Source: Nemertoderma westbladi
Taxonomy: Eukaryota > Animalia > Xenacoelomorpha
NCBI GenBank assembly: GCA_032718475.1
Contig: JAUCBJ010008846.1
Location: 1 to 64,000 of the forward strand
Direction: 5' to 3'
DNA: 64,000 nucleotides
Shown here in pieces: positions 3,001 through 29,930 of the stretch. The notes beneath the pieces are model-generated. The model saw only the letters and a list, made by a program, of their open reading frames with translations. It ran no database searches and had not been told where the DNA came from. Position 1 is the first letter of the stretch; every line of letters starts with the position of its first letter. The position numbers were made by a program, and so were the translations under genes.

Positions 3001-6000
3001 GTTTCAGCCACAATGTCCTGGCCCACTGATTGTGGCTTGGCCACCACCTTAGCCCTCGGCTTCCGCAGTTTCGCTTGTCCAGATCGATCTGGGACGTCAG
3101 TAAATGACAGGGGCTGGATGGGATCGGTGATAGTCATGTATCGAATCTGTGCCGAGACCCGAGTGGTCTCCCAACGGATAAGGGGAATAACTGAACTAAT
3201 AAAGAAAAACAACTCCCTAATACAAAATTATTCGATTAGGTAAACCTCCTACATTCCGGTAACAATCCTGCTATCGGTACCGGTACCTACCATCAAACTA
3301 ATTAAGTTTATTAAACTCACTGATTTCACCGAGATTTTCTCTGCTTTAACAACCGACGTCAGATAATACACTGTATAATGTCACCCAATATAACCAACAA
3401 CCATCCAAACCAACCAGCCAACGGTTTGGTAAATTACATTTCGAGTTTAATTTCTTCGATAGATTCGTCGTCCTCGCCTCGGCCTCGTAGGATTACGTAT
3501 AAATTGTACATAATGCGATTAGAATGAACGGCAAACACGTTTGGAGTAACAGGTAAGGAGATGCGGACCGAAAAAGTCAACAAAAATACGAAGGAACCAC
3601 ACACAAGCAATGTCATGAAGCTGTTTTGTTCAATAGCACAATCCGCCAGTCTGCAGTATGGCAGCCAGTAACAATTTAAATTTCCAACCAAATGTGTTGC
3701 TACGTTGCCACAAATCAACAAGTATATGCCTCCCATAGAAAGCATTGGTACACATTCCCATTGAATACATTGGTACACTTTTTTAAGGAGACGTTTCATC
3801 CTTAGAATACATTATTGTGGAGCGTTCCAATTTAATCGAGAAACGTTTCTATTGAAGAATTAGGAATCGTTCCAATTTAATTTTACGGCGAAGTTGATGG
3901 GACAAACAGCGCGAAGGCTGGGGCTAGATCTTCGCCCCCCCCGGGGGCTAAAGGGGCAAGAAAAAGGCCGAAAAAACGGAACGATTCTCAGCGGTGGGTA
4001 AGAAACGGACGCGGATTGGTCGGGAGTGGGCTAAATGTAGCTTATAACTGATTCCCCGTTGGAGGTTTTGCCGACGTTGACCCTATCTGGTACACTTTTT
4101 GTCGTTTCTCATTAAGCTCAGCTTATAAAACGCGAGTGTAGTTCTTATTAGTTGTTTAGCCTCGGCTCTAGCACCTTGACGTCTTCTGATTAGTTGTTTG
4201 TCCCACCCTCGCGAAAACGAAGTAATAGTAAATTAATTGAATTGGAACGGTTTAAAAAAAATTATGCATATGAAAAAAATATTATTGAAATAAGTACATC
4301 TTTTGTCATCATTTATTTGTTATTAGAAATAAATTAAAATTGCATACATCCAATGTTTCTCAGATATCTTATTTCTTAACTTCTCTATATTTGTTATATT
4401 TAATAATTCAATTATTGCATACCTTTTTTACGCTATACCAATGGTGTTAAATTACTCGTCGAATGCATAACAGATTAAGAAAAGTAACAGGGAATCCCCT
4501 CATGTTATTATTTATGACGCGTCCAGCATAGTACAACTCCCTACTCCAATACTACAGCCAATCGGATTGCAGTATTATTTTGTAAAGGCCTTGTTGCAGC
4601 TTACTAATGTTGTGATGTCTTGGTATGGAAGCCTTGGGGATAGGTCCCATTTTATTCAACCAATGGGGATCGAGAATTCCCTTGTGTTGTTCCCTGCTTG
4701 TAGTATTATCTTTTATAAACATATACTTTTATAAGTTTATAAAATAATATCAAATATTTGTAGATCATGTAGATTTTGGTTTTAGGGGTTTAGATTTCTG
4801 GGCTGTATGTTTTCGTACGTAAATGGATAGTGGGACATTCTCGGAGGATGTACTGCTGGGGGAAGATGGATCTGAAGAGAAATCGGAATGTGGAAGTTCT
4901 AGTTGGGTTGGGGTTAAAGAAGAAGGGCCAGAGGGAACAATCGGTACTGAGGAAGGTAACTGATGGACGTTTGGGACACTGGGATATGAATGCTCACCGT
5001 AAAGGTCTCTGTTGCCGGGAGGGAAGCTGGTCCATGCTACCTGTGGCGGTGGCAGGGACACGGATGCGGGCAGCGGTGCCTCCAGCTGAATGTAATCAGT
5101 CGCCACAAATGTGGCACGATCACTTCCAACAGCCACAGGCACAGCTACCACCGGGTCCTCCATAAACACAGCGTCCCAGACCGAACGCAAGTCGAAGGAC
5201 ATCGCTAAGTGCAGGGCCAGTCAGCTGGGGTGGTTGGGCCACATCAGCTAGCCCAGTTAATTGTGGCGTTTCAGCCACAATGTCCTGGCCCACTGATTGT
5301 GGCTTGGCCACCACCTTAGCCCTCGGCTTCCGCAGTTTCGCTTGTCCAGATCGATCTGGGACGTCAGTAAATGACAGGGGCTGGATGGGATCGGTGATAG
5401 TCATGTATCGAATCTGTGCCGAGACCCGAGTGGTCTCCCAACGGATAAGGGGAATAACTGAACTAATAAAGAAAAACAACTCCCTAATACAAAATTATTC
5501 GATTAGGTAAACCTCCTACATTCCGGTAACAATCCTGCTATCGGTACCGGTACCTACCATCAAACTAATTAAGTTTATTAAACTCACTGATTTCACCGAG
5601 ATTTTCTCTGCTTTAACAACCGACGTCAGATAATACACTGTATAATGTCACCCAATATAACCAACAACCATCCAAACCAACCAGCCAACGGTTTGGTAAA
5701 TTACATTTCGAGTTTAATTTCTTCGATAGATTCGTCGTCCTCGCCTCGGCCTCGTAGGATTACGTATAAATTGTACATAATGCGATTAGAATGAACGGCA
5801 AACACGTTTGGAGTAACAGGTAAGGAGATGCGGACCGAAAAAGTCAACAAAAATACGAAGGAACCACACACAAGCAATGTCATGAAGCTGTTTTGTTCAA
5901 TAGCACAATCCGCCAGTCTGCAGTATGGCAGCCAGTAACAATTTAAATTTCCAACCAAATGTGTTGCTACGTTGCCACAAATCAACAAGTATATGCCTCC

Positions 6001-8449
6001 CATAGAAAGCATTGGTACACATTCCCATTGAATACATTGGTACACTTTTTTAAGGAGACGTTTCATCCTTAGAATACATTATTGTGGAGCGTTCCAATTT
6101 AATCGAGAAACGTTTCTATTGAAGAATTAGGAATCGTTCCAATTTAATTTTACGGCGAAGTTGATGGGACAAACAGCGCGAAGGCTGGGGCTAGATCTTC
6201 GCCCCCCCGGGGGCTAAAGGGGCAAGAAAAAGGCCGAAAAAACGGAACGATTCTCAGCGGTGGGTAAGAAACGGACGCGGATTGGTCGGGAGTGGGCTAA
6301 ATGTAGCTTATAACTGATTCCCCGTTGGAGGTTTTGCCGACGTTGACCCTATCTGGTACACTTTTTGTCGTTTCTCATTAAGCTCAGCTTATAAAACGCG
6401 AGTGTAGTTCTTATTAGTTGTTTAGCCTCGGCTCTAGCACCTTGACGTCTTCTGATTAGTTGTTTGTCCCACCCTCGCGAAAACGAAGTAATAGTAAATT
6501 AATTGAATTGGAACGGTTTAAAAAAAATTATGCATATGAAAAAAATATTATTGAAATAAGTACATCTTTTGTCATCATTTATTTGTTATTAGAAATAAAT
6601 TAAAATTGCATACATCCAATGTTTCTCAGATATCTTATTTCTTAACTTCTCTATATTTGTTATATTTAATAATTCAATTATTGCATACCTTTTTTACGCT
6701 ATACCAATGGTGTTAAATTACTCGTCGAATGCATAACAGATTAAGAAAAGTAACAGGGAATCCCCTCATGTTATTATTTATGACGCGTCCAGCATAGTAC
6801 AACTCCCTACTCCAATACTACAGCCAATCGGATTGCAGTATTATTTTGTAAAGGCCTTGTTGCAGCTTACTAATGTTGTGATGTCTTGGTATGGAAGCCT
6901 TGGGGATAGGTCCCATTTTATTCAACCAATGGGGATCGAGAATTCCCTTGTGTTGTTCCCTGCTTGTAGTATTATCTTTTATAAACATATACTTTTATAA
7001 GTTTATAAAATAATATCAAATATTTGTAGATCATGTAGATTTTGGTTTTAGGGGTTTAGATTTCTGGGCTGTATGTTTTCGTACGTAAATGGATAGTGGG
7101 ACATTCTCGGAGGATGTACTGCTGGGGGAAGATGGATCTGAAGAGAAATCGGAATGTGGAAGTTCTAGTTGGGTTGGGGTTAAAGAAGAAGGGCCAGAGG
7201 GAACAATCGGTACTGAGGAAGGTAACTGATGGACGTTTGGGACACTGGGATATGAATGCTCACCGTAAAGGTCTCTGTTGCCGGGAGGGAAGCTGGTCCA
7301 TGCTACCTGTGGCGGTGGCAGGGACACGGATGCGGGCAGCGGTGCCTCCAGCTGAATGTAATCAGTCGCCACAAATGTGGCACGATCACTTCCAACAGCC
7401 ACAGGCACAGCTACCACCGGGTCCTCCATAAACACAGCGTCCCAGACCGAACGCAAGTCGAAGGACATCGCTAAGTGCAGGGCCAGTCAGCTGGGGTGGT
7501 TGGGCCACATCAGCTAGCCCAGTTAATTGTGGCGTTTCAGCCACAATGTCCTGGCCCACTGATTGTGGCTTGGCCACCACCTTAGCCCTCGGCTTCCGCA
7601 GTTTCGCTTGTCCAGATCGATCTGGGACGTCAGTAAATGACAGGGGCTGGATGGGATCGGTGATAGTCATGTATCGAATCTGTGCCGAGACCCGAGTGGT
7701 CTCCCAACGGATAAGGGGAATAACTGAACTAATAAAGAAAAACAACTCCCTAATACAAAATTATTCGATTAGGTAAACCTCCTACATTCCGGTAACAATC
7801 CTGCTATCGGTACCGGTACCTACCATCAAACTAATTAAGTTTATTAAACTCACTGATTTCACCGAGATTTTCTCTGCTTTAACAACCGACGTCAGATAAT
7901 ACACTGTATAATGTCACCCAATATAACCAACAACCATCCAAACCAACCAGCCAACGGTTTGGTAAATTACATTTCGAGTTTAATTTCTTCGATAGATTCG
8001 TCGTCCTCGCCTCGGCCTCGTAGGATTACGTATAAATTGTACATAATGCGATTAGAATGAACGGCAAACACGTTTGGAGTAACAGGTAAGGAGATGCGGA
8101 CCGAAAAAGTCAACAAAAATACGAAGGAACCACACACAAGCAATGTCATGAAGCTGTTTTGTTCAATAGCACAATCCGCCAGTCTGCAGTATGGCAGCCA
8201 GTAACAATTTAAATTTCCAACCAAATGTGTTGCTACGTTGCCACAAATCAACAAGTATATGCCTCCCATAGAAAGCATTGGTACACATTCCCATTGAATA
8301 CATTGGTACACTTTTTTAAGGAGACGTTTCATCCTTAGAATACATTATTGTGGAGCGTTCCAATTTAATCGAGAAACGTTTCTATTGAAGAATTAGGAAT
8401 CGTTCCAATTTAATTTTACGGCGAAGTTGATGGGACAAACAGCGCGAAG
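1..8449. repeat. Tandem macrosatellite, unit 2266-2267 bp, about 3.7 near-identical copies (array runs off the left edge)
   Basis: Identical ORF sets recur at 232, 2498, 4765 and 7031 (periods 2266, 2267, 2266). I saw only isolated differences, e.g. C>T at 2926 and an extra C in the C-run near 3940. The last copy breaks off at ...AACAGCGCGAAG (8449). Confidence 0.98.
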
Positions 8450-8671: not shown

Positions 8672-8872
8672 AAGTAAACATATCGCTAGACATGGTTATG
8701 GCCTACATTCATTGAATTATTATAGGCCTGATATGTTAATTTTTTAATTAAATAGCTTAATTATTCAAAATTAAACTTATATTTAAAAAAATGGCTTTAT
8801 AAGAAATAATTATTACACCATGGTTATGTGAGTATAGTTTACATTGTTTACAAACAATAATTTTATTTTCAG

Positions 8873-9098
8873 ACTTCCACTGTGCCACTCTATAAACAAA
8901 TGTGGGACTACATGTCAACACATAAAGACGAGGTATTTGTGAAAAATTTGGATGAAGGCATTGCGAAGGTAACCAAAGGGGATTATGCATATCTCGGCGA
9001 ATCGTCTATGTTGGACTACCCTCTAAGCACAAACTGCGAACTCACAACTATTGGAACGCCGCTGGATCAGAAATTTTATGGATTTGCTTTACAAAAAC
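8873..9098 (+). CDS. Ionotropic glutamate receptor (non-NMDA, kainate/AMPA-like), exon encoding part of the S2 ligand-binding domain
   Basis: Acceptor ttttattttcAG (8871-72) and donor C|GTGAGA (9099). Translation TSTVPLYKQMWDYMS...VFVKNLDEGIAKVTKGDYAYLGESSMLDY...NCELTTIGTPLDQKFYGFALQK matches the iGluR S2 pattern (Y.KMW.FM, EGI.RV, YAFLMES, C.LT.IG..D.KGYG). Confidence 0.95.
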
Positions 9099-9360
9099 GT
9101 GAGAAAGCGTTTTTTTATTTAGCGATTTGTTTAAAATTTATTTGGATTTGAATGCATGCCTGTGTCGGTGTACAACAAAATTGGTTATTTATGGCAATGC
9201 AATCTCTACATGGGTTATTAGTATTACAACTGATGACGACTCCAGATCTCTCGATAGACCTGTATATGGGGCGCCGTGGGCTTTAAAATTTTGAAAATGT
9301 CGACGACTGGTTTAGATTCTCGGCTTAAATTTCGGCCAAGCTTACGGCTTAGATATCTAC

Positions 9361-13389: not shown

Positions 13390-13780
13390 ATCCCATATAA
13401 TGAAAGTATGCTGAACATACGTGAGCGAGAGACTGGAATCAAAGGCCTTGAAGAAGTCAACAAAGATAACAGCCAGATGCCTGTCTTTCTTTTTTGATAA
13501 CTCTTCAATTATCCTTCTAAGTGCCAAAATGGGTTCCATGGTCCCACGACCTTTACGGAACCCATTCTGATTTCCACGGAGCAGTCTCTCAATGGGATCC
13601 CTGATGCGATTTAATAGAATTCTATTTTATAGCTTTGCAGCAATCGAGATCAATGAGATTCCCCGAAAAGAACCATAGAGTGTTAGGTTGCCCTTCTTGG
13701 GAACTGGCACCAACTTATTTGTTTTCATTTCTTGTGGGACTCTTGTTGTTCGGTACATGTCTACTATGATGGGATAGATG
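13390..13780 (-). mobile_element. Internal RT fragment of the RTE LINE family
   Basis: Reverse complement is nearly identical to about 25625-26014 (IYPIIVDMYRTTRVPQEMK...FSILSLYGI). It has an in-frame stop and a 1-bp insertion and no 3' tail. Confidence 0.95.
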
Positions 13781-14207
13781 TAGGCTGCCGACTGTAGGGG
13801 TCCTTTTTTTACACCCTGAACCAAGTGTGCCTCCTGGGTTAGGGTACCTAACAATGTTAGAGGAGCATCCAGTATAGACAGAGCGGGGCGTGTATCATCT
13901 CTATTGCAGATACGTATCAAGCCTTTGCCTTCAATAGTGCCCGAGGCGCTATAGCGCTCAATGACTTATTTAGTTGACGGGACTAAAACCAACCCACACT
14001 TGATCATCTAAATAATGACTAGGCTATGCTTATCGGGCCTGCCCTACTGGGCTGCCAGCTACAGTTAGTACCACATTACTGCCATAGTGGTAGCAGGATC
14101 TGGGGACCTGACCTGACCTAATAAGTACAGTATAGTAAGTACAGTAATGAAGTACAGTATATAGATGCTCTGTATTTCCTGTACTGATAAATTTGTATTT
14201 CTCTCAG

Positions 14208-14383
14208 GTGAAGATTGTGCAAAAATCAGAGAAGCTGCTGCCGAAAAAACTGATGCCAATAGTCTCACGTGGGAAAATATAGGGGGTATTTTTCTTATAC
14301 TGGCGGCCGGTACCGGATTAGGTGTCGTTGTCGCCATCATTGAGTTTATATGGAAAGCGAGAAAAAATGCAGAAATCGACAAG
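14208..14383 (+). CDS. iGluR exon: conserved Cys, pre-M4 and M4 transmembrane helix
   Basis: Acceptor tatttctctcAG (14206-07, phase 1) and donor AAG|GTATGT (14384). GEDCAK...ANSLTWENIGGIFLILAAGTGLGVVVAIIEFIWKARKNAEIDK matches kainate-type ASAL...NIGGIFIVLAAG...EF.YK..KNA..EK. Confidence 0.95.
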
Positions 14384-14464
14384 GTATGTGTAAACGTATG
14401 TTATTCATTGATTAAGTAAAAGTACATACCGGTAATATACAAACATGGAGGACAGACAAATATG

Positions 14465-14621: not shown

Positions 14622-14782
14622 TAATAAATACACTAATAATAAAGTCTGACCTCCAATGGACAGGACAGGACTCCGTCAACTGTTTGCAACCTTTTCTGAT
14701 TCTGGAATGACTGGATCTCTAATTCCTTCGAATTAAATACTACGAACCGTTAATTATGAATGAATTAATAGTGGAAACTGAA

Positions 14783-16490
14783 TTGCCCTGCTCACTCCCA
14801 TCCTTCACTGTTCCGTCATGGTGCTGTCCTTGCCCTGTTCACTCCCACCCTTCACTGTTCCTTCCTGGTGCTGTCCTTGCCATACTCACTCCCATCCTTG
14901 ACTGTTCCTTCCTGGTGCTGTCCTTGTCCTGCTCACTCCCACCCTCACTGTTCCGTCCTAGTGATGTCCGTGCCCTGCTCACTCCCACCCTTCACTGTTC
15001 CTTCCTGGTACTGTCCTTGCCCTGTTCACTCCCACCCTTCACTGTTTCGTCCTGGTGCTGTCCTTGCCCAGCTCACTCCCACCCTTCACTGTTCCCTCCT
15101 GGTGCTGTCCTTGCCCTGCTCACTCCCAGCCTCCACTGTTCCGTCCTGGTGCTGTCCTTGCCCTGCTTACTCCCACCCTTCACTGTTCCTTCCTGGTGCT
15201 GTCCTTGCCCTTCTCACTCCCACCCTTCACTCTTCCTTCCTGGTGCTGTCCTTGCCCTGATTACTCCCACCCTTCACTGTTTCGTCCTGGTGCTGTCCTT
15301 GCTCTGTTCACTCCCACCCTTCACTGTTTCGTCCTGGTGCTGTCCTTGCCCAGCTCACTCCCACCCTTCACTGTTCCCTCCTGGTGCTGTCCTTGCCCTG
15401 CTCACTCCCACCCTCCACTGTTCCGTCCTGGTGCTGTCCTTGCCCTGCTTACTCCCACCCTCCACTGTTCCGTCCTGGTGCTGTCCTTGCCCTGCTTACT
15501 CCCACCCTTCACTGTTCCTTCCTGGTGCTGTCCTTGCCCTTCTCACTCCCACCCTTCACTGTTCTTTCCTGGTGCTGTCCTTGCCCTGCTCACTCCCACC
15601 CTTCACTGTTCCACCCTGGTGCTGTCCTTGCCCTTCTCACTCCCATCCTTCACTGTTCCTTCCCTGTGCTGTCCTTGCCCTGCTCACTCCCACCCTTCAC
15701 TGTTCCACCCTGGTGCTGTCCTTGCCCTGCTCACTCCCACCCTTCACTGTTCCTTCCTGGTGCTGTCTTTGCCCTGCTCACTCCCACCCTTCACTGTTCC
15801 TTCCTAGTGCTGTCCTTGCCCTGCTCACTCCCATCCTTCACTTTTCCGTCCTGGTGCTGTCCTTGCCCTGCTCACTCCCACCCTTCACTGTTCCTTCCCG
15901 GTGCTGTCCTTGCCCTGCTCACTCCCACCCTTCACTGTTCCACCCTGGTGCTGTCCTTGCCCTGCTCACTCCCACCCTTCACTGTTCCTTCCTGGTGCTG
16001 TCTTTGCCCTGCTCACTCCCACCCTTAACTGTTCCGTCCTGATGCTGTCCTTGACCTGCTTACTCCCACCATTTACTGTTCCTTCCTGGTGCTGTCCTTG
16101 CCCTGCTCACTCCCACCCTTCACTGTTCGGTCCTGGTGCTTTCCTTGCCCTGCTTACTCCCAGCCTTCACTGTTCCTTCCTGGTGCTGTCCTTGCCTTGC
16201 TCACTCCCATCATTTACTGTTCCATCCTTGTGCTGCCCTTGCCCTGCTCACACCCACCCTTCACTGTTCCTTCCTGGTGCTGTCCTTGCCCTGCTCGCTC
16301 CCATCCTTCACTGCTCCCTCCTGGTGCTGTCCTTGTCCTGTTCACTCCCACCCTTTACTGTTCCCTCATGGTGCTGTCCTTGCCCTGCTCACTCCCACAC
16401 TTCACTGTCCCCTCCTGATGATGTCCTTGCCCTGCTCAATCCCACCCTTTACTGTTCCCTCCTGGTGCTATCCTTGCCCTGCTCACTCCC
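14783..16490. repeat. 47-bp satellite array, left block (about 36 monomers)
   Basis: Consensus CCTGGTGCTGTCCTTGCCCTGCTCACTCCCACCCTTCACTGTTCCTT. It ends at GCTCACTCCC|TGT, the BEL LTR. Confidence 0.99.
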
Positions 16491-17001
16491 TGTGACGGGA
16501 TCCACAAAGGATCCCGGTTTATCCGGTTTTCGATTTACGCGTCGCGTTCCCGCCATGTGTGTGTAAAAGGTGGATGGTTGTTGATTGCTGTATAAAGTCC
16601 TCCGGTATAATAGTATAGATATGGAATAAGATGTCTGCACAGTGGTTACGCAACGGTAATTAAAGTTCCGGTCCTATCCTAGCTAAACCGACCAACACAA
16701 TGAGATAACTGAAATAACTGATTACTGTCAACTGGTTATATTGCACGGGTTGGCCTTGTTACTGTACCTAGCCGGTGCCTCCCTCCCATTGGCTGATATC
16801 CCTGTTGGCGCCCTTTGGAGTGTTTCCCCTCACTCCTGCTATTCTCTCTCGGTCAGGGGTGTGGCCCCTGACCCTTATTGTGTGTTTCTCCTTCCCATTT
16901 TATTGGGGTGGCACGAGATTGGGTAATCAACCTCGTGGCCCCCAATATTGCTTAACGGCTTACTTTATGGGTTTGTGGTAGCGGAATTGAATAAGCTAAC
17001 A
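16491..17001 (-). repeat. 3' LTR of BEL element 1 (511 bp)
   Basis: TGT...ACA termini (minus strand TGTTAGC...CGTCACA), immediately after the PPT and abutting satellite. No second copy is available to confirm the boundaries. Confidence 0.8.
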
Positions 17002-17010
17002 CTCCCCCCA
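17002..17010 (-). promoter_or_regulatory. Polypurine tract of BEL element 1
   Basis: Minus strand TGGGGGGAG directly precedes TGT of the LTR. Confidence 0.8.
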
Positions 17011-17707
17011 TGCTATCTTCCCGGTGAGAAGATAGCATCCTCCTAAAGTGCGCTACAATTCCGCTGGATCCCGATCTAGCATCGGGTGTGGGGTGGAACT
17101 ATTTTCTCTCGGAGCCGGCTTTCCAGGCTGCTCCCTATGGGTATGATAATGCTACCCGGTTCGCCTGGCGTCCCATGTCGGGCCGATCGTGCGCTCCTCT
17201 CACACGACTTTTGTTTCCCCAACACTTTCGCCACTTTAGCCCCACTCTGTTCTCACCCTGACTCTCCTCTACTTCTCCTTCTTTTGCTCTAACTCTCGGA
17301 CTTCCCTGTCCCTCACTCAGTCTCTTATCCTCCCCCCCCCACACTTGAATTGCATCCGCACTTTCTCCGCACTCCGCACTATCACCTTTACTCGACCCCT
17401 CTTTGACTACCCCATCCCTTCTGACGAGTCTCACCCCCCCTCCTGTGCCGTCGCACTCAAGAAGTGTGAAATCGTCTGGTGTCTCGTCCATAGTACCATA
17501 GTCAGTTAGCCCCCCAGTCCCAGTAGCTAATTGAGAAAGGTTGAATGACTATAGTGCTTACTTCGAACGTATATTTCATTACTAAACTACTGATTACTAC
17601 GTACGTACATATAAATTGCACTTATTTGATTATTTAGATTACTTGAATTTGTACTTAATAGTCCGCACGTCTCACGTGGCGCCTTCCAGGCGTACCACAT
17701 CGAAGCC

Positions 17708-20257
17708 TCAGTCTATCCCTCCTGACTTTGGGAACCACCTCAAGTCTTTCCCTTTGCCGTCCTCCTCCCTGGGTCGTTTCCTGGTCACTACCGCTCCCCT
17801 GGGATCCGCTTTCTGTCTTCGGACTCTCGCCGCCACCTCCTTACTGATCCCGGTCGTTGGCTCCTTGGGTGCTGGTGTTATCAGCTCCCGATATCGCTTC
17901 GCGGGTGGCCCCTCCGAGTGGCCCTGTTGTCTCCCCCTGGTGGCGTCCCATAAGATCATCTTCATTGCTCGCGGCACGTGCTCCGCCAAGAAATCCCTAA
18001 ACTCCCCTCGGTTCTGTGGCGTCCACCTGTCCAAATACCTTTGAGTATTCATCACCCCGGCATACGACGCCGCCGTTGCTACCTCTTGATAGGTAAACGG
18101 TAACCTCCGCTTTATGATTTCCAAGTGAGCCTCCTGATTGATAAGGAAGAAACCCCACTTGAACTCCTGGGCCTTCATGCATTGCCGCGTCATGGCCCCG
18201 ACATCGGCCCACTCCTCGAAGATTTTGAACTTTTCTTCATCGTCCATCCAGTCACACTGGCGTCCGTAGTGTCCCCGAAAGTTACACTTCGGACATCGGT
18301 TATGCAACCGTGGACACACCCCATCCTGTGGCTCGACTCGCGGCAGTAGAGACAAAAGGTCCCCTTTTGGAATCGGTACAAACAGCTCCTTTCCTGGTGG
18401 GTCTGTCTCCCACAGTAATCGCAACCGAGTACCAATGTCTCCCGCCCCACGTTGTCTTTCATCCCAAGCGATCTCCGCGGTCTGTGGAGTCGCTGGTAGG
18501 CGAACTTCTGCACGTTAGTGTCCCTGTCTACGTCGATCTCCTCGCCCCTCTCGGGCATTGTCTCCCCGAATACTACCCGTGGTGCCGTCCCCGGTTGCTC
18601 GCCCAACCTGATAGTGCTCCCCGCGAAATCCATCGCAGGCACCTCGTGCACCCAGGCCCGCTTGCCGGGTCTATCCCAGAAGGCCCTCGCCTACTGGCCG
18701 TCACCACCCTCCCGCCAACCCAGTCCGTGTCCGAGTGGCCAATCCTCTCGATGGGCGGCATCTCTCCGAACTCGTCGTTGTCTCCGTCCTCCTCTGGCAG
18801 TGGTTCCAACCCCGGTATCCCGATGGATCCACTATGTCCCTTCCCACCTTGGCTCTCGCCCGTAGCTCTCCATCCCTCTAGCTCCCCTAACTTCCTTAGC
18901 GGTTGGTCGCCTTCGGCGCCCGCTGGTAAGGGCATCGCTTGCAACCCCGACGTCGACTGTTTCGGCGATCCCACCGTCCATCCCAGTTCTCGCCCTAGAG
19001 ACTCCCCCGAACTCCCTGATGAAGTCCAACGAAGTTCGTCTAAGCCTGCCTGTTCCTCGAAGCCGTAACTCTGCGTCCTGGCCTCCTCCTCCCTCTCCTC
19101 TGCTTCTATCCTCTCCCGTCTCGCGACTTCTTCCAGTCGCTTTGCCTCTCGTCTATCCGTCTCTAGCTGCTCCCATCTCTGATACGGCGTATCTATCTCC
19201 CCATCTATCAGATGTCGGCTGTTGTAGTACACCGACTCGCCCTTCAGCCCCGGGTGGTCTACCAGACCGTCGAAGGCCGTCTTAAAGGCTCTCCTGTAGC
19301 TTAGGGGTGATCCCGATAACAGAAATGCCGCTGGTTCCCTCTCGATAACCACGGTCATGAATAAGTTAAGCAAACTTATCATTATCCAATCTTGCTGCAG
19401 GATATATCGCTTCTGATATACCTTTATCGCTCCTCTTCGGAATTGATACACCTCTTGCTTTCCTGGCCTCGCTCCCCACTTCAGCGAGTTCGCCAACTCT
19501 GCTCCGTACTCTTCTCTGAACTTTCCCCAGTCCGTCGGCTTATGACACACGAGCCCCAATAGCTGGCCCATCGCCACCGCTCCGCACTGGCCTGTGTTCT
19601 CCACTACTCCCAACCCGTCCGGTACTGTCATAGCCATGAAGACCACCTGCATGTCCAGAAGGTTGGGGGTGTCCGGACCGATGATTCTCTCCGCGTCGTT
19701 GCGAATCGCCGATCCCACCTTCGTCGTCGACTTCTCTCTTACCAGGACTTGCACCGCTTTCGGCAACCGGTTTAATTTCGGCCCGTCCTTTTTCCCATAC
19801 GTTCCTAGATCGAATAAGAAAATGTCCCCATTTGGCGCGGCCAAATGTAGGAGTATGGTCCTGGCCGACCCCGCTGATCCTCGTCTCGAACCCTCCTCGT
19901 CTTCCACGGTTCCCTCGTCGTCTAGGATCATATATCCTCCCCTGTTGACGGACTCTATAAACCTCTTCCAATCCTTCTTCGGCGACTCCCTCGGGTACTT
20001 CGGAATCCCGAACTTCGCCTCGTCCCCTTTCACCACGTAGTGGAAGTGTTGGAAGATCGCGTTGTCCAGCGACGGCGTCCCGTTCGCTGTTCGTGCATCT
20101 CCCGGAAGTGGTCCTGCAGCGCTCGTGCCGCGTGACCCTTTTCCAACCTCTCGTAGTATCCTCTCGTCTTCTCTTCCGGATGCCTCTTGGTGAAATCCAC
20201 CAATATCTCCTTTCCTCCTTGTTCCGCCTTTCTCTTTCTGATCAGTTTTCCCGCCAT
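17708..20257 (-). pseudogene. Cargo ORF (about 850 aa reconstructed over three -1 frameshifts): DEDDy 3'-5' exonuclease, coiled coil, three CCHC zinc knuckles
   Basis: ExoI ILDDEG; LLHLAAPNGDIFLFDL...LPKAVQVLV; ExoII KVGSAIRNDAERI; LLDMQ; ExoIII-like QKRYILQQDW. E/R-rich helix follows. Knuckles are CDYCGRQTHQERSC, CLYCRESSHRMG/VC (restored by adding one G to the run at about 18320) and CPKCNFRGHYGRQC. Confidence 0.75.
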
Positions 20258-20740
20258 TCCGAACACTCTCACTCGCTCACCTGTAAGGTGGTGCCTTACC
20301 AAGGCGCAATACAGATGAGTGATAAGTTTCTGATGGTCTGCACAGTTCGAGAATGGCCTATTTCCTATCTAACTACGCCTTTTAGCCTAAATTTCTATTA
20401 CCTAATTTTGTAGCTAACAAATGTACCCTATTTGCAATTTCTGTCTGTTGTTTTAATTATGTTCCAGAATAATTTCCCTGCTGTTACCATAATTTGTAAT
20501 TTTTAGCCCTATTTATTCTATTTATTTTTAATTTAACTTAATTCTACTACTTTACTGTTTATGGATTATTCTATTTCATAATCCACATTCTGACCTACTC
20601 TATGGGCCTGTGCAGTACAGCAGTATATGTCGCGTGGCCTACACGATCTATCCAACTGTACTCATATGCCCCCCTCTCGCTACTAACTACTGACTAATAT
20701 CTATACTATATATACCCTTCCACCTCTATCTCTTACTAAT

Positions 20741-21205
20741 CGGTACTATGTACCCTCTTACTAACCTCCAACTAACTAGCGGTACTACGTACCCTCTAAC
20801 TCTTACTCTCTCTCCCTAACTAGCGGTACTATGTACCCTCTAACTCTTACTCTAACTCCACTAACGGTACTATGTACCCTCTTACTACTCTCTAACTCCA
20901 CTAACTATCGGTACTACGTACCCTCTTACTAACTTCCAACTCTACTCTTACTAACCGGTACTACGTACCCTCTTACTAACCTCTAACTCCACTAACCTTC
21001 TCTACTAACCAACGGTACTACGTACCCTCTAACTAACTACTCTAACTCTACTAACCATCGGTACTACGTACCCTCTTACTACTTCTCTAACACCTCTAAC
21101 TAACTGACTCCTAACTCTCGGTGCTACTTACCTCCTAACTAACTAACTAACTAACTCTGGGTACTACGTACCTTCTAACTAACTCCTAACTAACTAACTA
21201 ACTCT
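20741..21205 (-). repeat. Array of about 10 palindromic CGGTACTAYGTACCCTCT repeats with variable CTAAC/CTACT-rich spacers
   Basis: Repeats at 20741, 20780, 20824, 20865, 20909, 20956, 21013, 21059, 21119 (degenerate) and 21159; spacing 39-60 bp. Confidence 0.92.
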
Positions 21206-24200
21206 AATTTTTATTTATTTTATTTTTTATTTTATGTGTGGGAAGGGCGTCTCGCCCTCAATCCCACCCCCCTCAGTCCAAAACTTGGACGACTAAACTA
21301 CACTCTAACTCCACCCTAAGGTGCCCCTTCTAATAGACAGCATTTCCCTACAGCTCTCCTGTAGGTTTTTCTGTCTTTCGCACCTATCTTGCCACCTATC
21401 CGCACTTCTACCGATCGGACTCTTCCGTCCTCATCGGAGTAAGTGCCTACAACTCTCGCCAACCGCCACTGGTTGTTGATGATGGTATCATCCGTAACGA
21501 TTACGAGATCTCCCTCTCTTAACTCCCTATTCGACTTCCTCCACTTGCTTCTTTTGTGAAGCGTGGGTAGGTATTCCTCAACCCACCTTCTCCAGTACTC
21601 TGCGCTTATCGCTTTAGCGACCTTCCAACTCTGGCGGGAGTGTATGTCATCTGGGTCTACACCCCGCATATCGATGGTCGCTGGCCTTTCCATTAGAAAA
21701 TGGCTGGGCGTCAGCACATCTAATGACTCAGGGTCATCATTCTCCGGATATAGCGGTCTGCTATTAATGATACCCTCGCACTTCGCAAGTACTGTTCTCA
21801 AGACGTCCTCCGTGACCATGTGGGTGTTCATTAACTTCGTCATGAGACGCTTCGAACTGCCCACCAGTCTCTCGACGCATCCTAGTGTATGTGGTGCATA
21901 CGGCGTCCTTCTCTCCCACTTTACTTGTCATCGTCTCATGGCCGCCCTGACTTCCTCCCCTTCCAAGATCTCCAAGGCCTCTGCCATCTCGTTCTCTGCT
22001 CCCACAAAGTTGGTTCCGCTGTCGGAGTACATTACTGCGATTGTCCCACCTTTGCGGTCTCTGAACCTTTCTAATGCATTAATAAATGCTGATGCGGTTG
22101 CATCTTGGGCGAGTTCTATCCCTACCGCCCGCGTGTTGTTACATACGAAGATAATACCGTAGCGTTTCTCCGTGTGCCGCATCACCTTGATCTTTATCGG
22201 CCCGAACATGTCCACACCGCAATGTGTAAATGACGGGTCGTGCTGTCTTACTCTACTCGCTGGTAGTGGTGCCATCTCTTGTATGGCTCGCTCCTTCTTC
22301 GCTCGTCGGCAGGTCTGGCACTGCCCCACTACCGCTTTTACCTTCTTCCTCAACTGCTTGACCCAAAAGGTCCTCCGTATCTCCGAAAGGGTTCGGTTGG
22401 TGCCCCCGTGCAATATCGACTTGTGGGAGTCCCAGATAATCTGGTGGATTATTGGCGATCCTGTGGGAATGATGATGGGTTTCGGTGGTATGACTATGCT
22501 GTTGTTGTATCCCACCCTGGAGTTCATTACTAGAATCCCGTCGTCATTAAGTTGTGGTGACAGCGTGATCAACTCGCTGTCTCGTCGGAGATGCTGTTGT
22601 TTACCGACGCGTTCCACCTCGTCGCCATAGCTCTTCCGTTGTTCATAGCGGATTACTGCTTTGGCCGCTTCTTCCAGATCTATTGTTCTCCTGATCTTCT
22701 TGCATTTGCCAACTCCCGCGAGGAAATTCCCGAAGGCTCTCCAGTACGCCACTAGTTTCTTGGTCTTGTACCAACTAGAGCTGTAGCTGAGGAGTTTATC
22801 CGTCGGGTTATCGCACAGTTCTTCTGGCTTAGGTTGCACGTCCCTTATCTCCCTCACCATCTGGGAGTATATCTCTTCTCCCTCTGAATCTCCCTCTTCT
22901 CCTTCTGACACTACCTCTCCTGAGCCCGGGTCCACCTTTCTCATCGGCGGCCAGGCCTCCTTGTCGCTCAGAAACTGCGGCCCGTGTTGCCACAATCCTT
23001 CCTTTTTTAAGAAAGTGTGGCGTGCCACGCCCCTTGATAACAAGTCCGCTGGGTTCTCGTCCGTTGGGCAGTAGTGCCACCTTTCCAATTCTGTGGTCAC
23101 CCTTATCTCGTTCACCCTATTCGCGATGAATATAGGGTATCTCGTCCTTTCGTTATGTAGCCAACCAAGCACTACCATGGAATCCGTCCAGTAGTGTGTC
23201 TCCACTATGTTGGGAATAGTATCCACTAGGTAGGCTGTGGCCCTAACTCCTAGTATGGCAGCTGTCAATTCTAGTTTGGGAACTGATGCTGAATCTGGCG
23301 GCGTTGACTTAGCTTTGCTAAAGGCCAGTCTGGGCTTGTGAGCCCCCTCTCGTTGTACTAAATAGAGTGCCGCTCCGTACGCCTCCAACGACGCATCGGA
23401 GAACATGTGTAAGTCCAGATTCGTCATGTTCCCATCCGGGAAATACACTCGCGGCATGTTGTATGTTCCCATCTTCTCCAAACCTTCTGTCCACTTACAC
23501 CACTGTTTCTTGATCTCCTCTGGTACCTCTACATCCCACTCATCCTTCAGTTTCTATACTCTCTTGAGTATCTGTTTCCCCGTGACTAGTAGTGGGGATG
23601 CTAGACCTAGGGGATCGTATATTCTTGCTATGTATGACACATAGCCTCTCTTTGTGTGGATGTCTGCGCCCTCCTGGCTCAGCTGGTACTTCAGTTCATC
23701 TGTCTCTCTGTTCCGCACGATTCCCAGTGCCTTCTGTTGAGATTCTGTCCTCTTGTTCGCCATGTCCTGCCCTTTGGCCGTTGTGGGATTATCCATAGTC
23801 GATTCTGGTCTCTCGTCCCCTATCGCCTTGATAAATTCCTCCGAACTGGATTGGAATTTGGTCAGGTTAAAGCCGGATCCTTTTAGGATGTCACGAACCT
23901 CGCGCCCTGTGTCCAGTATCTCCTTAACCGTATTTCCAGACTCCATTCCGTCGTCTACGTAGAAGCCGCGTCGAATCATATCGACGGCCCTAGTGCTGTA
24001 TCTATCCTCCTTCCCCTTCACTGTATCTCTTACTGCCATAGTTGTCGTAAATGAAGACGACTTGGCTCCCATGTTCTGTACTACCATCTTGTACGTCAGT
24101 ATTATCGACGGTTCTTCGTCACCGTTGTACCACCACAAGAAGCGTTGACTGTCGCTATCTTCCTCCGTTACACGGACTTGGTTGAACATGCCTTCTATGT

Positions 24201-25582
24201 CACACGTGAAGGCGTGTTTCCCATTTCTAAATCTAAGTAGGACCTCTATCCCTGAGTTGTATATGTTCGGACCTTCTAGTAGATAGTCGTTTAAGCATTT
24301 TCCGTTGGTCTTTGCCGATGCGTCAACTACCATCCGCAGTTTACCTTTCTTCGGGTCTAAAGCCACGTGGAGTGGTAGGTAATACGTCCTATCCGTGTTT
24401 GGTTCGTCGACCGGTAACTCCACGGCCCATCCTTTCTCGACGTACTTCTTAATCGTTCTGTGGATGTACTCATTCTTCTCGGGGCTCCGTTTTAGTGTCT
24501 GCTTCAGCTTGCGGAGCCTCGTGAGTACCATCCCTCTATTATCGGGCAGTGGTAGCTTCGGTAGCTTCCATACCATTCCTATGGTGTACCGCCCCTCGTC
24601 GCATTTCATAGACTCCTCTACGCTCTGCTGAGCCTGTTTGTCTTCCACCGAGGTCCCGACCCCGGTCTCCTTTAATCCTTCAAAATCCTGTCTGAGCAGT
24701 CTTTTAAGCTGCTCCTCTGCTCTCTCATCACTCATTTCCTGCATAGTTCCCGCGAACATGCATCCTGATGTCTCCGACATCCTAAATGGTATCTTGCTCT
24801 TGATTGGGCCACTCAGCGTCCACCCGAATGGTGTCAGTATCGCCACCGGGTCACACTGCTTGTCTTTGCCGAAGACCGTTTGCATTCTTTTGTGGGCCGT
24901 TGGGCAGTCCATTCCTACTATGATGGATACCTTCCTAACGTCCACCTCTGGGATTGAGAAGTCGATATCATCCAGAAATTTATATTGTTTGACCTCGATG
25001 TTGGTTGGCCGTCTGGCATTGATGTTTATTGACTCTATCACTTGGATGGGGTCGATGCTCGCCCCATAGTCGCATCCTGGTGCTATTGCTGCGATGGTGC
25101 ACCGTCCGGTTCTCATCTCCAGGACCTCATCTTTGCTGGAGATGGTTGTCACCGCCATTCTACTTGGCCTCGTTCTCAATCCTATTTCTTCGGCCACCCA
25201 ATCCTCGACTAATGTGAAAGCAGCTCCACTATCAACCAGCATTAGTGTTGTTACTGATCGATTGCCTTCTCCAATCACTCGCACAGGTACTACCCCAAGT
25301 AGCACCGTTCCTCTCTTCTTCGTCCCTACTGTGCTCATTGCCATCGTTTGGCCTTTCCTTTGACCGAACTTGACCGGCGTCTCCTTGCATTGCCTAGCTC
25401 TATGTCCACTCATCACACATCGCGAGCAGATCTCATTCCTCGCCGCATATTCTACCTGATCTTCCCTGGGTAGCGCTTGCCAGTATCTGCAGTTCATGGT
25501 TTGATGAAGCGCATTTGTATGTAGCTGGCATTTGCTCTTTGGGTCGTAGCCCTCCTTATACAGTGCATTGCGTATCGCAGCT

Positions 25583-27110
25583 TAAAATCTTTAAAGTCTT
25601 TAAAATACCTGAGTGTTTAAAGCTCATCTATCCCATCATAGTAGACATGTACCGTACAACAAGAGTCCCACAAGAAATGAAAACAAATAAGTTGGTGCCA
25701 GTTCCCAAGAAGGGCAACCTAACACTCTATGGTTCTTTTCGGGGAATCTCATTGATCTCGATTGCTGCAAAACTATACAATAGAATTCTATTAAATCGCA
25801 TCAGGGATCCCATTGAGAGACTGCTACGTGGAAATCAGAATGGGTTCCGTAAAGGTCGTGGGACCATGGAGCCCATTTTGGCACTTAGAAGGATAATTGA
25901 AGAGTTATCAAAAAAGAAAGACAGGCATCTGGCTGTTATCTTTGTTGACTTCTTCAAGGCCTTTGATTCAGTCTCTCGCTCACGTATGTTCAGCATACTT
26001 TCATTATATGGGATTCCTGATGAAATTATTGCAGCAATCAGATCAGTATACGATGGTTCGACAACATTTGTGTCTACTGTTGACGGTGACACAGAACCAT
26101 TTGAAGTGTTATGGGGCGTCCTCCAAGGAGACACACTTGCACCATTCTTGTTCATTATTGTGGTTGACTATGTTCTACGCATGTCCTTAGATCATCATAA
26201 TGATGATGGGGTGATGATAACTCCACCTACTGGCTCCAGAAGTCGAGGAAATCCTGCCAAGTACCTAACTGATCTAGACTTTGCTGATGACTTAGGAGTA
26301 CTCTCAGAATCATTAGAGGGAGCCCAGCGGCTCCTCAGCTCATTAGAACATGCTGCTTCTAGTGTTGGTCTTTTTATTAACTCCAGAAAGACCAAAATTC
26401 TGACAGTTAACTTTGAAAGTCCTCAGCAAGTCTCTGATCGGATGAGCATAAGCTCAAAGGATGGTATGCTTGAGCATGTGGACGACTTCTGTTACCTGGG
26501 ATCATGGATCCGGAAGTCAGGTGAGGACCTTCGAATACGTAAGGGAAAGGCATGGGCAGCCTTGAATAGGCTTTCCAGGATTTGGAAGTCACCTAGAATT
26601 AATCGGAAACTTAAGGTCCGATTATTTAGAGCAGCAGTAGTTCCAGTACTCCTCTACGGGAGTCCATGCTGGGCTCTAACTGCTGAGGACACCAAATCTC
26701 TGGATGGCACATTCACAAGAATGCTACGCCGGGTACATTGTGTCAAGTACAATGCTCACATCTCCAACCAGACACTATATAACATTGGAGGTGTCTCATT
26801 GGTTCCCCCAAGCTTGACACTAGAACAAAATCGCCTCCGCTTTGCAGGACATTGCTTTCGCCGTGAGGACCAGCCAGTGCATAATCTTGTACTTTGGCAG
26901 CCTCATGGAGTGAATAAGCATGGTGGACAGCCCATGACTTTCTTGAGACGCATCTTAAAGGACACTGGCCTTAAAGATGCGGATGATCTAGCAAATGTCA
27001 TGGGTGATAGGGAGTTGTGGCGGTGCAATTTTGTTGACAAGCCGGCACAGCATTCTTAAAAATGCAGCTGCAATGCAGCATGCCGATCCTAGTAGTAGTA
27101 GTAGTAGTAG
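25583..27110 (+). mobile_element. 5'-truncated RTE-clade LINE inserted in BEL gag, with target-site duplication
   Basis: TSD GTATCGCAGCT at 25572-82 and 27110-20; short 3' UTR and (TAG)7 tail. Confidence 0.95.
25595..27059 (+). CDS. Non-LTR (RTE-like) reverse transcriptase, N-terminally truncated, frame intact
   Basis: PKKG, FRGISLIS, QNGFRKGR, FVDFFKAFDSV, GVLQGDTLAPFLF, LDFADD, FCYLGS, VLLYGS..W and RLRFAGH motifs. Confidence 0.93.
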
Positions 27111-27318
27111 TATCGCAGCTGCGTTTGTACCAAAGTCCCTACTATTCTTATTGTTTGGGTTCGGCCTACTGGACGTACTGGGGTTATATTTATTCGTGTT
27201 GTTATTGTTCCCCTGTCCGTTCCATGGTGTGGTCTTACCTTCGGCTACCTGTGGACTTGCAGTCCCCTGCGTCGCTGCATATGGCAGTGATTGCCTGAGC
27301 TTCGGTAATGCGTTTGAC

Positions 27319-27335
27319 GTCCTTGCCCTGCTCAC
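27319..27335. repeat. 17-bp remnant of the 47-bp satellite between the two BEL elements
   Basis: GTCCTTGCCCTGCTCAC is an exact monomer substring in the same orientation as both arrays. Confidence 0.85.
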
Positions 27336-27610
27336 TGTCGTACATGTATCAACCAATTACTTGGTTGTAATGGAAAATGATCTTTTAATGTAAAACTTTA
27401 CTGTTTTCTTGATAATATAAATGTTAATTAATCTACACAAATCCCGTCACCTCAATACTTCATATATCAAATTAATTATAGTATGAGTCGAACACATGTT
27501 GGCACATAAAGTGGTACTGTAACTTGTATCATATTGTTTGCATAGTAAATCAATTAATGTAAGTGTGAGGTATGATCTCATAAGTGGATAAAATAATATA
27601 TTGCACGACA
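27336..27610 (-). repeat. 3' LTR of BEL element 2 (275 bp)
   Basis: Inverted termini TGTCGT...ACGACA with adjacent PPT. Confidence 0.8.
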
Positions 27611-27887
27611 CTCCTCCCTTGCATATCATGCAAAATCTAAATCAATAAAATAATTACATAACACTACTGTACTGATATGATTTATCCCTCAACACAATAA
27701 ATAAATTCTACAGTACATAATTGTAAATTGAAAGTAATTTTCATTTACAGTACTACATAAGCTTACATACGTTTCCGCTATATAAACAATAATCTTACTT
27801 GTATAATACTAAGTAGAACACAATTATTCACTAAATATATGATAAAGTTACATAATCCAACTCGAATTTGTTCAATACTGTATGTAA

Positions 27888-29930
27888 TTATTTTGCATTG
27901 TAAAATCCTGGTTTTATTTTTCTCTTAGCCAAGCGTGAAAGACGAGAATTGTCAGTTATGATCGCTGTCTCATCGTTTGTTATCTTATTTTCTACTGGAA
28001 GAACTGGCTTGAGATTATCTTTATCTGGTTTAATAGTCGTGTCAGTTGGTTTGTCCGCTGTTATTTCCAATGGAATAACATAACGTATGGAACGAGTAAG
28101 AAGTCTTGCTTCCCGACCTCTTTCAGCAACATTTACTGTTATTGCGCGAATAACTCCATCACGACTTACTATCAACTTGTTAACCATACACAACTTCCAG
28201 AGACATCTTGGAAGTTTTTCATCAAGAAGTAAACACATATCTCCAACCTTAGGGATGATTGTGTTCCTGTTATTGTGATTTTGGGAACGATGGTGTTGCC
28301 GAAGTTCTGCGACGTATTCTTCACGAAATAATTTCCAATATAAATTGGACGCTCTTTCTTGATATTTAAGTCGATTTATAAGATTCGTTCGAGACAAATC
28401 TAGATTAATTGATTTTACGGTAGGGGATGGAAGTGCACAGAGTCTTTTTCCTACCAAGAAATGGCTGGGTGTCAATATCTGGTAATTTTCTTTGCTGTCG
28501 CTATAAATAAAGGTTAGTGGTCTGCTATTAACAACTGCCTCACATGATGTAAGTACAGTACGAATTTCCTCTTCAGTTAAAACTGCTCTCCCTAACGTCT
28601 TGCGAAGAACTCCTTTGGTCACACCGACCAAACGCTCTATAAAGCCATATGCCGCCGGGTAGCGTTCTACATTAAATACCCATTTTGTTAAGAGTTCTCC
28701 AAACTCCTTGCGTACTATGTCACTGTCAAGAAATTTGTTATAGAGTTTGATATCTGCTGCTGATCGTTTGAATGTAGAAGCATTGTCACTAAAAATTAAT
28801 GATGGAACTCCACGTCTTGCTATAAATCGCCGGAATGCACTGATAAATGCTGCAACACTTAAGCTGGTCACGAGTTCCAAGTGCACTGCTCTTACTACGG
28901 CACAAGTGAACAGACATATATAAACCTTAAATGTTGAACCAATCGGATCGGAAAGAGATCTAACTGCCATCACTGGTCCTGCAAAATCTATCCCGACATT
29001 AGTAAAGGGACTTGTGTCGATAGTCATGCGTTCAATGGGCAAAGGACTTGTTTCCTGTTTTGTATAAGGTCTGCCTTGTATTCTTTTACAGGTTACACAG
29101 TTTCGTAAAACATTCTTAATGACTTGACGCGCTCGGGGGATCCAATATCTTTCCCGTATTTGTACCAGCGTGTCTCTTACACGTGAATGCATAACTTTAT
29201 GATGAGCATTTAAAATTACTAGCTTAGTGAAATGATCTTTCGGTGGGAGTAGTATTGGATTTTGAGCCTGCCATGTTAAGTATGGGGTCTGTGCTCTACC
29301 TTTGGAGCGTAATACACCTTGGTGGTCAATAAATAAGTTTAATTGCTTAATAATGTTTGGACATCGACCACGTTTCGGTTGTTGCAAGTATTCTAATTCT
29401 GGTTTATAATGTTCTAATTGTATCATTCGAAGTAGTGTAATTTCCGCTTGAGTCATTTCTTCTGCCGAAGGAACTACACTTAGGGAAAGCGGATGTTTGT
29501 GTATGCTTGCTCGAATGTTGCTCACAAACCTGAGCACCCACGCAAGCTTTCGTATAATTACAGTATGATTGCTATAATTGGAGTATGGGAAACAATTGCT
29601 AATAACTTCATCGGGTGATTTAATGGTCGTAACAGCTACAATGGATGATTTGAATTCCTTTAGACAATCTTGGGATACCTCTATTGGATCTATAACTAAT
29701 TTGTTCGGCCAAGTTTCCTCTTCTGCGCTTAAGAACTTTGGGCCATTGAACCAAGTAGTTGCCTTTATGAGTTGTTCTACTGTCATACCTCTTGTGGGTA
29801 AGTCGGCGGATTTTGTATTCCTGGACAAAACCGCCACTGTCCTTTCAATTGTTGAGTTAATGAACGTATCTCCGGAACCCTGGATTGAACCCACTGTTTG
29901 CAGTTTGAACTAGTCGCTTTTATCCAGTAA
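27888..29930 (-). pseudogene. BEL/Pao RNase H C-terminus plus integrase (truncated; frameshift near 29808)
   Basis: An alternative frame gives LYWIKA...WVQSRV.EIR...WRFCPGIQNP, joining ADLPTRG after a 1-bp deletion. HHKVMH/CVTC zinc finger, GIDFAGP, SDNASTF, ERLVG, NSRPL and LTPSHFL are present. Confidence 0.93.

Follow-up and report, generated by a model that had tools for sequence, protein, structure and literature searches.

A third gene in a decayed BEL/Pao retrotransposon of Nemertoderma westbladi likely encodes a DEDDy-type exonuclease joined to CCHC zinc knuckles

The window analyzed here, a 64,000-nucleotide stretch of the Nemertoderma westbladi genome (contig JAUCBJ010008846.1), contains a decayed copy of a multi-copy BEL/Pao long terminal repeat (LTR) retrotransposon with a third gene located 3' of the integrase. 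This gene, the cargo open reading frame 3 (ORF3), likely encodes a DEDDy-type 3'-5' exonuclease domain and three CCHC zinc knuckles. The proposed reading is that the protein would trim single-stranded RNA to the advantage of the element, and a probability of about 0.45 is assigned to it.

The original prediction, made from the letters of the sequence, joined four overlapping minus-strand ORFs into a protein of ~850 residues descended from one ancestral ORF. Measured from stop to stop, these frames occupy 20030-20368, 18573-20276, 18190-18690, and 17708-18514, and reading from the ATG at 20257 with one X per break gives 850 positions and zero stops. The three predicted breaks exist and map to ~20083, ~18689, and ~18318, not to the ORF ends given originally. 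Contigs from public sequencing runs were used to compare the window copy with other copies of the element; no RNA run was among those listed. Five of six runs, all under one organism label, hold part of the stretch, and four of these (X1-X4) were compared; they come from at most three samples, and one run may be the source of the window itself. At each of the three breaks, contigs representing other copies show indels relative to the window. The breaks are therefore particular to the window copy, which bears out a single ancestral ORF with the following parts.

17708..20257 (codons 20257-17711), minus strand: cargo ORF3, 850 positions counted from the ATG at 20257, each of the three breaks read as X
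20084..20257, minus strand: basic N-terminal piece of 58 residues with a cluster resembling a nuclear localization signal (NLS) at 20239
19341..20000, minus strand: likely DEDDy-type 3'-5' exonuclease domain, WRN/EXD2-like, from sequence comparison, the ESM Atlas, and a guided structural model
19922 (Asp) and 19916 (Glu), minus strand: candidate Exo I catalytic residues, placement uncertain
19697 (Asp), minus strand: candidate Exo II catalytic residue
19406 (Tyr), minus strand: candidate Exo III catalytic residue
19041..19190, minus strand: E/R-rich helix, likely a coiled coil (helix 284-329 of the unguided structural model, core predicted local distance difference test (pLDDT) score 81-95)
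18690..19040, minus strand: G/S/P-rich acidic linker, likely disordered, from composition
18254..18423, minus strand: three tandem CCHC knuckles starting at 18423, 18354, and 18295, the middle one crossing a break
17711..18253, minus strand: C-terminal region of ~180 residues with basic NLS-like clusters at 17899 and 17782 at its end

Variation among the copies was counted over 19330-20100, within the nuclease half of the gene. The count is crude and tree-free; it takes the best-supported 40 of 86 variant rows and scores each singly on the codons of the window copy. In the main frame, 28 of the 40 rows fall on third codon positions; the two alternative phases have 4 and 8. Twenty-nine of the 40 rows in the exonuclease region are silent, and the neutral expectation is 31%. 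The comparison among copies that the original prediction had called for gives a ratio of nonsynonymous to synonymous polymorphism (pN/pS) of about 0.11 by this count, with 24 of the 30 rows that segregate among copies being silent versus 31% expected. The rows that are nearly fixed against the window are silent in 5 of 10 cases, which fits decay of the window copy. Control rows from pol are silent in 19 of 24 cases. The evidence for the knuckle half is at the level of the reading frame, and one contig spans 17835-18322 with 91 differences and no gaps. These data show that the exonuclease-like region is under purifying selection across the element copies. The gene has therefore been kept for function and not merely carried along.

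The cargo domain very probably adopts a DEDDy-type fold, as judged from sequence comparison. All of the exonuclease-like motifs quoted in the original prediction were located in frame: ILDDEG (19928-19911), LLHLAA (19853-19836), IFLFDL (19823-19806), LPKAV (19766-19752), KVGSAIRNDA (19721-19692), and QKRYILQQDW (19415-19386). A search of the ESM Atlas returned PF01612 in 30 of 30 named matches (score 0.92, recognition 3266), with plant WRN-like exonucleases in the lead; the PF01612 rows share 161-169 features, slightly below the 170 typical for matches within a family. The unfiltered search placed unnamed basidiomycete clusters at 0.93-0.94, and its first Pfam-bearing match was a rotifer cluster at 0.91 with PF01612 in 19% of its members.

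For comparison with the cargo domain, 33 WRN-like domains from bacteria were assembled as references. Against these, the block scores were 32.1 for Exo II (next best 1.8) and 15.3 for Exo III (next best 3.7). The ordered chain of blocks scored 50.3 compared to a shuffle maximum of 24.4, with 0 of 1000 shuffles as high; the widths and spacings of the blocks were chosen after the alignment had been seen. A glocal profile gave z = 4.2, which exceeds 300 of 300 shuffles and every real-protein control. MAFFT aligned K-V-G-x5-D of Exo II and Q-x2-Y-x5-W of Exo III in register with the references, and the Exo II Asp falls in the invariant column D102 together with K94 and G96. The strict Y-x3-D pattern of Exo III is absent from the window copy, in which the Tyr, the upstream Gln, and the downstream Trp are aligned and the fourth acidic position (19394, four residues past the Tyr) is Gln. 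The Asp of the 'QD' pair in the motif quoted originally is not at the fourth catalytic position, and catalytic intactness of the window copy is unsupported. The window copy is probably inactive because the Exo III acid is missing.

The other copies differ from the window at this site. Where the window copy lacks the Exo III acid, the entire depth in each of the four runs shows an acidic, non-canonical residue. Next to the Exo II Asp, ~99% of the X1-X3 depth carries the residue conserved in the references, unlike the window copy, and X4 (depth 4.7) agrees with the window. The other copies approach the WRN-like pattern at two diagnostic sites, which is more independent support for the DEDDy assignment.

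A second interpretation of the same residues is that the fold is a catalytically weak or dead RNA-binding scaffold comparable to EXD1, Maelstrom, or Egalitarian. Together with the coiled coil and knuckles, such a scaffold would serve to package or transport element RNA or act as a decoy for silencing proteins. Four features would suit this role: an Exo III acid that is non-canonical in the family and absent from the window copy, a weak placement of Exo I, insertions relative to WRN-like proteins, and the presence of a coiled coil; inactive DEDD derivatives are also known in PIWI-interacting RNA (piRNA) pathways (PMC5408684; papers are cited here and below from their accessible parts). Such a role is improbable given that the other copies retain acidic residues at all four expected positions. 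The acids of Exo I and Exo II are unchanged in all 40 variant rows shown, and by eye one divergent contig end keeps the D-D-E of Exo I.

Several results weigh against an active DEDDy exonuclease. The Pfam check proposed in the original prediction gave no match for the nuclease domain up to E 10, and NCBIfam and PHROGs gave none up to the same value. No relative was found by a PDB sequence search with the nuclease region or by a HMMER scan of 1.84 billion representative proteins, and word-seeded homolog searches confirmed 0 of 4676 and 0 of 124 candidates. HMMER with a WRN-like profile gave 7 bits on the core, a value equaled by 1 of 1000 shuffles, and an RNase D/PolA-type profile did not recognize the domain. 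The hhalign probability was 9%, yet its score was above all 150 shuffles. Exo I is ambiguous in that MAFFT picked VEDEEG over ILDDEG and the Exo I block lies outside the top three. The Exo III acid of the family is not the canonical one. The closest sequence neighbors, of the WRN and EXD2 type, include DNA exonucleases. The unguided AlphaFold model had a pLDDT of 38.6, and its Foldseek search was uninformative. Identity to 32 of the bacterial WRN-like references is only 13-22%, with insertions relative to them. A formal filing under PF01612 is not possible because the domain stays under the Pfam cut-off and departs from the strict Exo III motif. The lone HMMER match among the 1.84 billion proteins was an unrelated bacterial repeat protein and was rejected as spurious. 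Pattern matches in viral contigs and metagenome contigs were confirmed in 0 of 5 and 0 of 96 cases, none was found in plasmids, and two phage matches at E 3-5 were rejected.

A guided model was computed with an alignment of 25 C-terminal reference fragments that leaves the first 46 residues without alignment rows, and it reached a pLDDT of 61.6. Within this part lacking alignment rows, a strand on YMIL, preceded by a helix, lies immediately N-terminal to D-D-E, at a pLDDT of <50. The model superimposes on WRN with Z = 8.5 and a root mean square deviation of 3.6 over 142 aligned residues, the alignment input itself being WRN-like. DnaQ-like domains appear in 49 of 50 structural match rows, judged from their titles. 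Foldseek gave no match at E up to 0.001, and the best was EXD2 at E 0.073. The guided model is circular and shows compatibility only because its alignment consisted of WRN-like proteins. The structure prediction proposed originally resembles WRN under guidance and fails without it. The predicted fit to the DEDDy family holds in the Atlas search and the ordered blocks, lacks a curated hidden Markov model (HMM) or an independent structure behind it, and narrows to WRN/EXD2-like proteins as the nearest subfamily.

These negative results could mean that the region is a conserved protein of another kind whose motifs match by chance. The missing curated HMM match and database relatives, the low hhalign probability, and the failure of the unguided model all speak for this explanation. 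It is nevertheless extremely improbable: the language-model search and the ordered block test converge on the same family, and at two diagnostic sites the variants in other copies are closer to WRN-like proteins than the window copy is.

The knuckle region was predicted to contain three CX2CX4HX4C motifs. Two are strict (18423-18382 and 18295-18254), and the one between them, from 18354, crosses the break at ~18318. Two strict knuckles arose in 0 of 100,000 shuffles of the 325 residues concerned. The sole other strict knuckle match in the six frames of the window is the gag knuckle of the element itself at 25428. The cargo knuckles score 14.6 bits against Pfam zf-CCHC_4, below the cut-off, and their best PDB matches are weak (E 0.39-3.2), with the HIV-1 nucleocapsid at E 0.39 and Trypanosoma brucei RNase D (TbRND) at E 1.6. 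Apart from the motif, the cargo and gag knuckles are dissimilar (E 0.69), which leaves a recent duplication of gag unsupported as the origin of the cargo knuckles.

Other properties of the ORF3 product were read along its length. The basic clusters at both ends are NLS-like in sequence. The C-terminal region at 17711-18253 has no family match, and a PDB sequence search with it gave one unconvincing match. A reading of ORF3 as an envelope (env) gene was rejected; the product has zero N-glycosylation sequons, and its best 19-residue Kyte-Doolittle mean is 1.44, inside the nuclease helix region. Some copies have internal deletions of 534-755 bases within 17698-18454, at joints of low depth, that remove the knuckles and the C-terminal part.

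Placement of ORF3 in a BEL/Pao element was upheld, with a same-strand pol upstream and a polypurine tract (PPT) and LTR-like end downstream. The order on the minus strand is BEL/Pao pol, tandem repeat, cargo ORF3, purine tract, and LTR-like end, with the following features.

27113..27327, minus strand: upstream gag-frame remnant, separated from pol by the insertion of a long interspersed element (LINE) and stopping at the LTR of a second BEL element
21316..25590, minus strand: end of BEL/Pao gag and pol (protease, reverse transcriptase (RT), Pao RNase H, integrase, and DUF5641) in a single phase, from Pfam
20700..21240, no strand: degenerate tandem repeat with units of 44-104 bp in the interval between integrase and cargo
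20280..20290, minus strand: candidate splice acceptor with AG at ~20281, 5' of the ATG, from sequence only
17002..17012, minus strand: PPT, from the sequence
16556..17001, minus strand: LTR-like end (TG...CA), ends read by eye

Pfam matches to pol above the cut-off are Peptidase_A17 (E 8.6e-27, 94.5 bits), DUF5641 (E 8.5e-26, 90.5 bits), Integrase_H2C2 (E 3.4e-13, 49.9 bits), and Asp_protease_2 (E 1.7e-5, 25.8 bits), and RVT_1 (E 0.0029, 17.8 bits) falls below it. The protease-RT-RNase H-integrase order with Peptidase_A17 and DUF5641 is that of a Pao-type pol. In-frame stops interrupt pol at 23554-23556 and 21928-21930. Gag contributes the single strict CCHC knuckle at 25428, and most of gag lies outside the window. 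The gag remnant was recognized because the ORF at 26988-27356 continues into 23554-25581 across the duplicated target site of the LINE. The 5' LTR of the cargo-bearing element is absent from the 64-kb window, its 5' end having been lost to the nested element and satellite.

At the other end of the element, the PPT is followed by TG at 17001 and the CA at 16556 is followed by TGG, and both LTR-like ends were read by eye. No partner for the LTR-like end at 16556-17001 was found within the window. A TGG-initiated stretch resembling a primer-binding site (PBS) directly follows the LTR-like end (16500-16556) and gives way to satellite. The same LTR may also begin a second, tandem element severed by the satellite. 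A short G/E-rich ORF (118 residues from its first ATG) lies between cargo and PPT at 17138-17491 on the minus strand; it has no Pfam match, is gapped in the contigs of other copies, and may be a fourth ORF or a chance one. Rfam gave nothing credible over 16400-21400, the lone match having E 0.54.

Contigs were aligned to 16540-25590, and all 30 bins of this interval were covered in 4 of 4 runs (28,457, 14,196, 14,918, and 264 contigs). The fraction of contigs leading into unlike sequence was 0 in X1, 0.01 in X2, 0.01 in X3, and 0.18 in X4. Of 91 joints, 15 were listed, and none of these jumps from integrase to the LTR or drops the cargo as a block. The ratio of summed depth of cargo to pol was 0.68-1.09, a crude value that is not a copy number and indicates the same order only. 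Compared to pol, contig depth was ~2 to 5 times higher over 16842-17143 and lower over 16540-16841, and this uneven depth over the LTR-like stretch may reflect LTR variants.

No contig listed bridges pol to cargo over the tandem repeat at 20700-21240, which counts against ORF3 as cargo of this element, and the linkage of pol and cargo inside one LTR pair is for this reason inferred. The cargo, PPT, and LTR-like end could then belong to a different element that was joined to the BEL pol through the tandem repeat or by nesting. The locus is heavily nested, with a LINE, a second BEL, and satellites; the 5' LTR is absent, the stretch is spanned by none of the contigs listed, a PBS-like sequence follows the LTR-like end, and the GC content at third codon positions (GC3) is 0.67 in the cargo versus 0.57-0.60 in pol. 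This origin is nonetheless very improbable. Contigs run into unlike sequence almost never in X1-X3 (0-0.01), the loose ends and joints shown include none with good support at a boundary, and the depths of pol and cargo are of the same order. The strand skew is unbroken over 17-26 kb, and the GC3 of the second BEL is very different at 0.315. The DEDDy fold, and the status of the gene as cargo of the family and not a nested element, are both considered likely.

The nested insertions and flanks were also described. A 5'-truncated LINE (RVT_1 and DUF6451) that ends in a (TAG)n tail and is accompanied by a target-site duplication occupies 25590-27112 on the plus strand, inserted in the BEL gag; an inverted fragment 98% identical to it is present at 13390-13780, and the LINE tail is seen again at 55430-55483. 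The AT-rich 3' end of a second BEL element, at 27328-29909 on the minus strand, is nested in the gag of the first and comprises integrase, DUF5641, a PPT, and an LTR of ~280 bp with no cargo ORF. A 47-bp satellite lies on both sides of the nest (14700-16540 and 29905-64000, ~36 kb). Pieces resembling exons of a kainate-type glutamate receptor occur on the plus strand at 8861-9151 (E 2.9e-16) and 14165-14419 (by eye), and the nest may sit in an intron of such a gene. The receptor match identifies the host as an animal. A tandem array at 1-8449 has a period of ~2266 bp and 99.9% identity between copies; it arose either by duplication very recently or as an artefact of assembly.

The mechanism proposed for ORF3 as an RNA-trimming exonuclease is as follows. 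The protein would be expressed separately from a spliced RNA, and the basic clusters at both ends would direct it to the nucleus. The knuckles would grip single-stranded RNA and pass its 3' end to a two-metal active site, as in TbRND. A role directed at the host is favored because selection keeps the gene across a multi-copy family while BEL elements generally lack it. Trimming of small-RNA guides or precursors is favored because the gene most plausibly helps the element against the host. Host small-RNA guides or their precursors are tentatively the likeliest substrate among the options, at somewhat less than even odds, and the protein would then act as a silencing suppressor. Two points tell against such a mechanism. 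The 3' ends of mature animal piRNAs carry a 2'-O-methyl group that impedes enzymes of this type, and the distance between nuclease and knuckles is ~300 residues versus 28 in TbRND. The stronger proposal that a BEL/Pao lineage encodes an anti-silencing nuclease that destroys host small-RNA guides and is convergent on the TbRND design is unlikely.

The same cargo could instead act on the nucleic acid of the element itself. The enzyme would trim the 3' ends of complementary DNA (cDNA), mismatches, or primer or RNA tails in the particle, during reverse transcription or before integration, and the knuckles would serve as a second nucleocapsid. The nearest sequence signal is WRN/EXD2-like and the weak best matches of the knuckles are retroviral nucleocapsids, in keeping with this role. 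Rodriguez et al. put 3'-end processing of element RNAs first for the rotifer proteins (PMC5408684), and Kojima and Jurka propose that the DEDDy domain in Dada transposons processes the 3' ends left by cleavage (PMC3706591). BEL elements typically have gag-pol and rarely env (PMC3118150), and therefore such a step would not be essential. The gene is also separate from pol and unfused, and the element already has a gag knuckle. A substrate within the element is rather unlikely on this evidence.

Animal transposon counter-defence against silencing by piRNAs and small interfering RNAs is largely open, and the published rotifer DEDDy ORF3s are without shown activity. The cargo described here would extend such genes to a second LTR superfamily, and its RNA-binding-type knuckles point to a definite mechanism. 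If host small RNAs are the substrate, ORF3 would be a transposon-encoded silencing suppressor, the retrotransposon counterpart of viral suppressors of RNA interference. An anti-silencing nuclease would belong to a broader exchange of nuclease cargo among LTR superfamilies. If cDNA is the substrate, the enzyme would provide an editing step not known in retroelements.

The nearest precedents for the cargo are in rotifers. Juno and Vesta LTR elements and Athena/Terminon elements encode DEDDy ORF3s with a changed DEED motif and no activity shown (PMC5408684), a finding repeated in reviews (PMC6431247, PMC5718144, and PMC6338049). As in Juno and Vesta, the cargo is a separate third ORF past the integrase, in the env slot, and is DEDDy-like with an altered acid pattern. 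The Juno, Vesta, and Athena lineages are not BEL/Pao, and BEL is unmentioned in the accessible part of PMC5408684. The same part of that paper describes no CCHC knuckles on the rotifer ORFs and states that coiled-coil domains are lacking, and in it variation was tested only for env and GDSL ORFs, which were neutral. The cargo is likened to the rotifer ORFs by description; in the Atlas it scores 0.91 against a cluster from rotifers. The original prediction mentioned DEDDy cargo in bdelloid rotifer retroelements and named no exonuclease-plus-knuckle cargo in BEL/Pao. A literature search found neither exonuclease cargo in BEL/Pao nor a knuckle fusion in any retroelement, although subscription journals, Repbase, or supplements could hold one. 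The rotifer proteins are published precedents in LTR elements all the same.

BEL/Pao elements (Belpaoviridae) with an env-like ORF3, such as Roo and mosquito BEL, have the same pol architecture and the extra gene in the same slot; unlike their products, the cargo has no strong hydrophobic segment or N-glycosylation sequon. A BEL/Pao survey reports gag-pol and only rare env genes (PMC3118150), and exonucleases are unmentioned in its accessible part and in that of a 2026 survey of env-carrying elements (PMC13524379). Dada DNA transposons also have a mobile-element DEDDy domain, and their transposases have a C-terminal CCHC motif as well; in contrast to the cargo, the Dada domain is inserted within the transposase of a DNA transposon and retains DEDD (PMC3706591). 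Among cellular proteins, WRN-exo, EXD2, and plant WEX-like enzymes (PF01612) share the Exo II and Exo III patterns in register and are the top Atlas clusters. The cargo differs from them in its low identity and insertions, in a score under every curated cut-off, and in its non-canonical Exo III acid.

TbRND (PDB 7C42-7C45) has the same arrangement of a 3'-5' exonuclease domain and then tandem CCHC fingers, with His spacings of 23, 23, and 18 compared to a knuckle spacing of 23 and 20 in the cargo. Its authors consider the combination of exonuclease and CCHC very unusual, and its RNA binding and cleavage both fall sharply when the four CCHC fingers are removed (PMC7797062, section 13). TbRND differs from the cargo in being an immobile, mitochondrial host enzyme with four fingers and a shorter linker. 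There is no significant sequence match over the knuckles, and the resemblance likely reflects convergence. DEDDy ORF3s themselves are already published, and what is new here is the different LTR superfamily, the TbRND-like design of nuclease and knuckles, and the measured selection.

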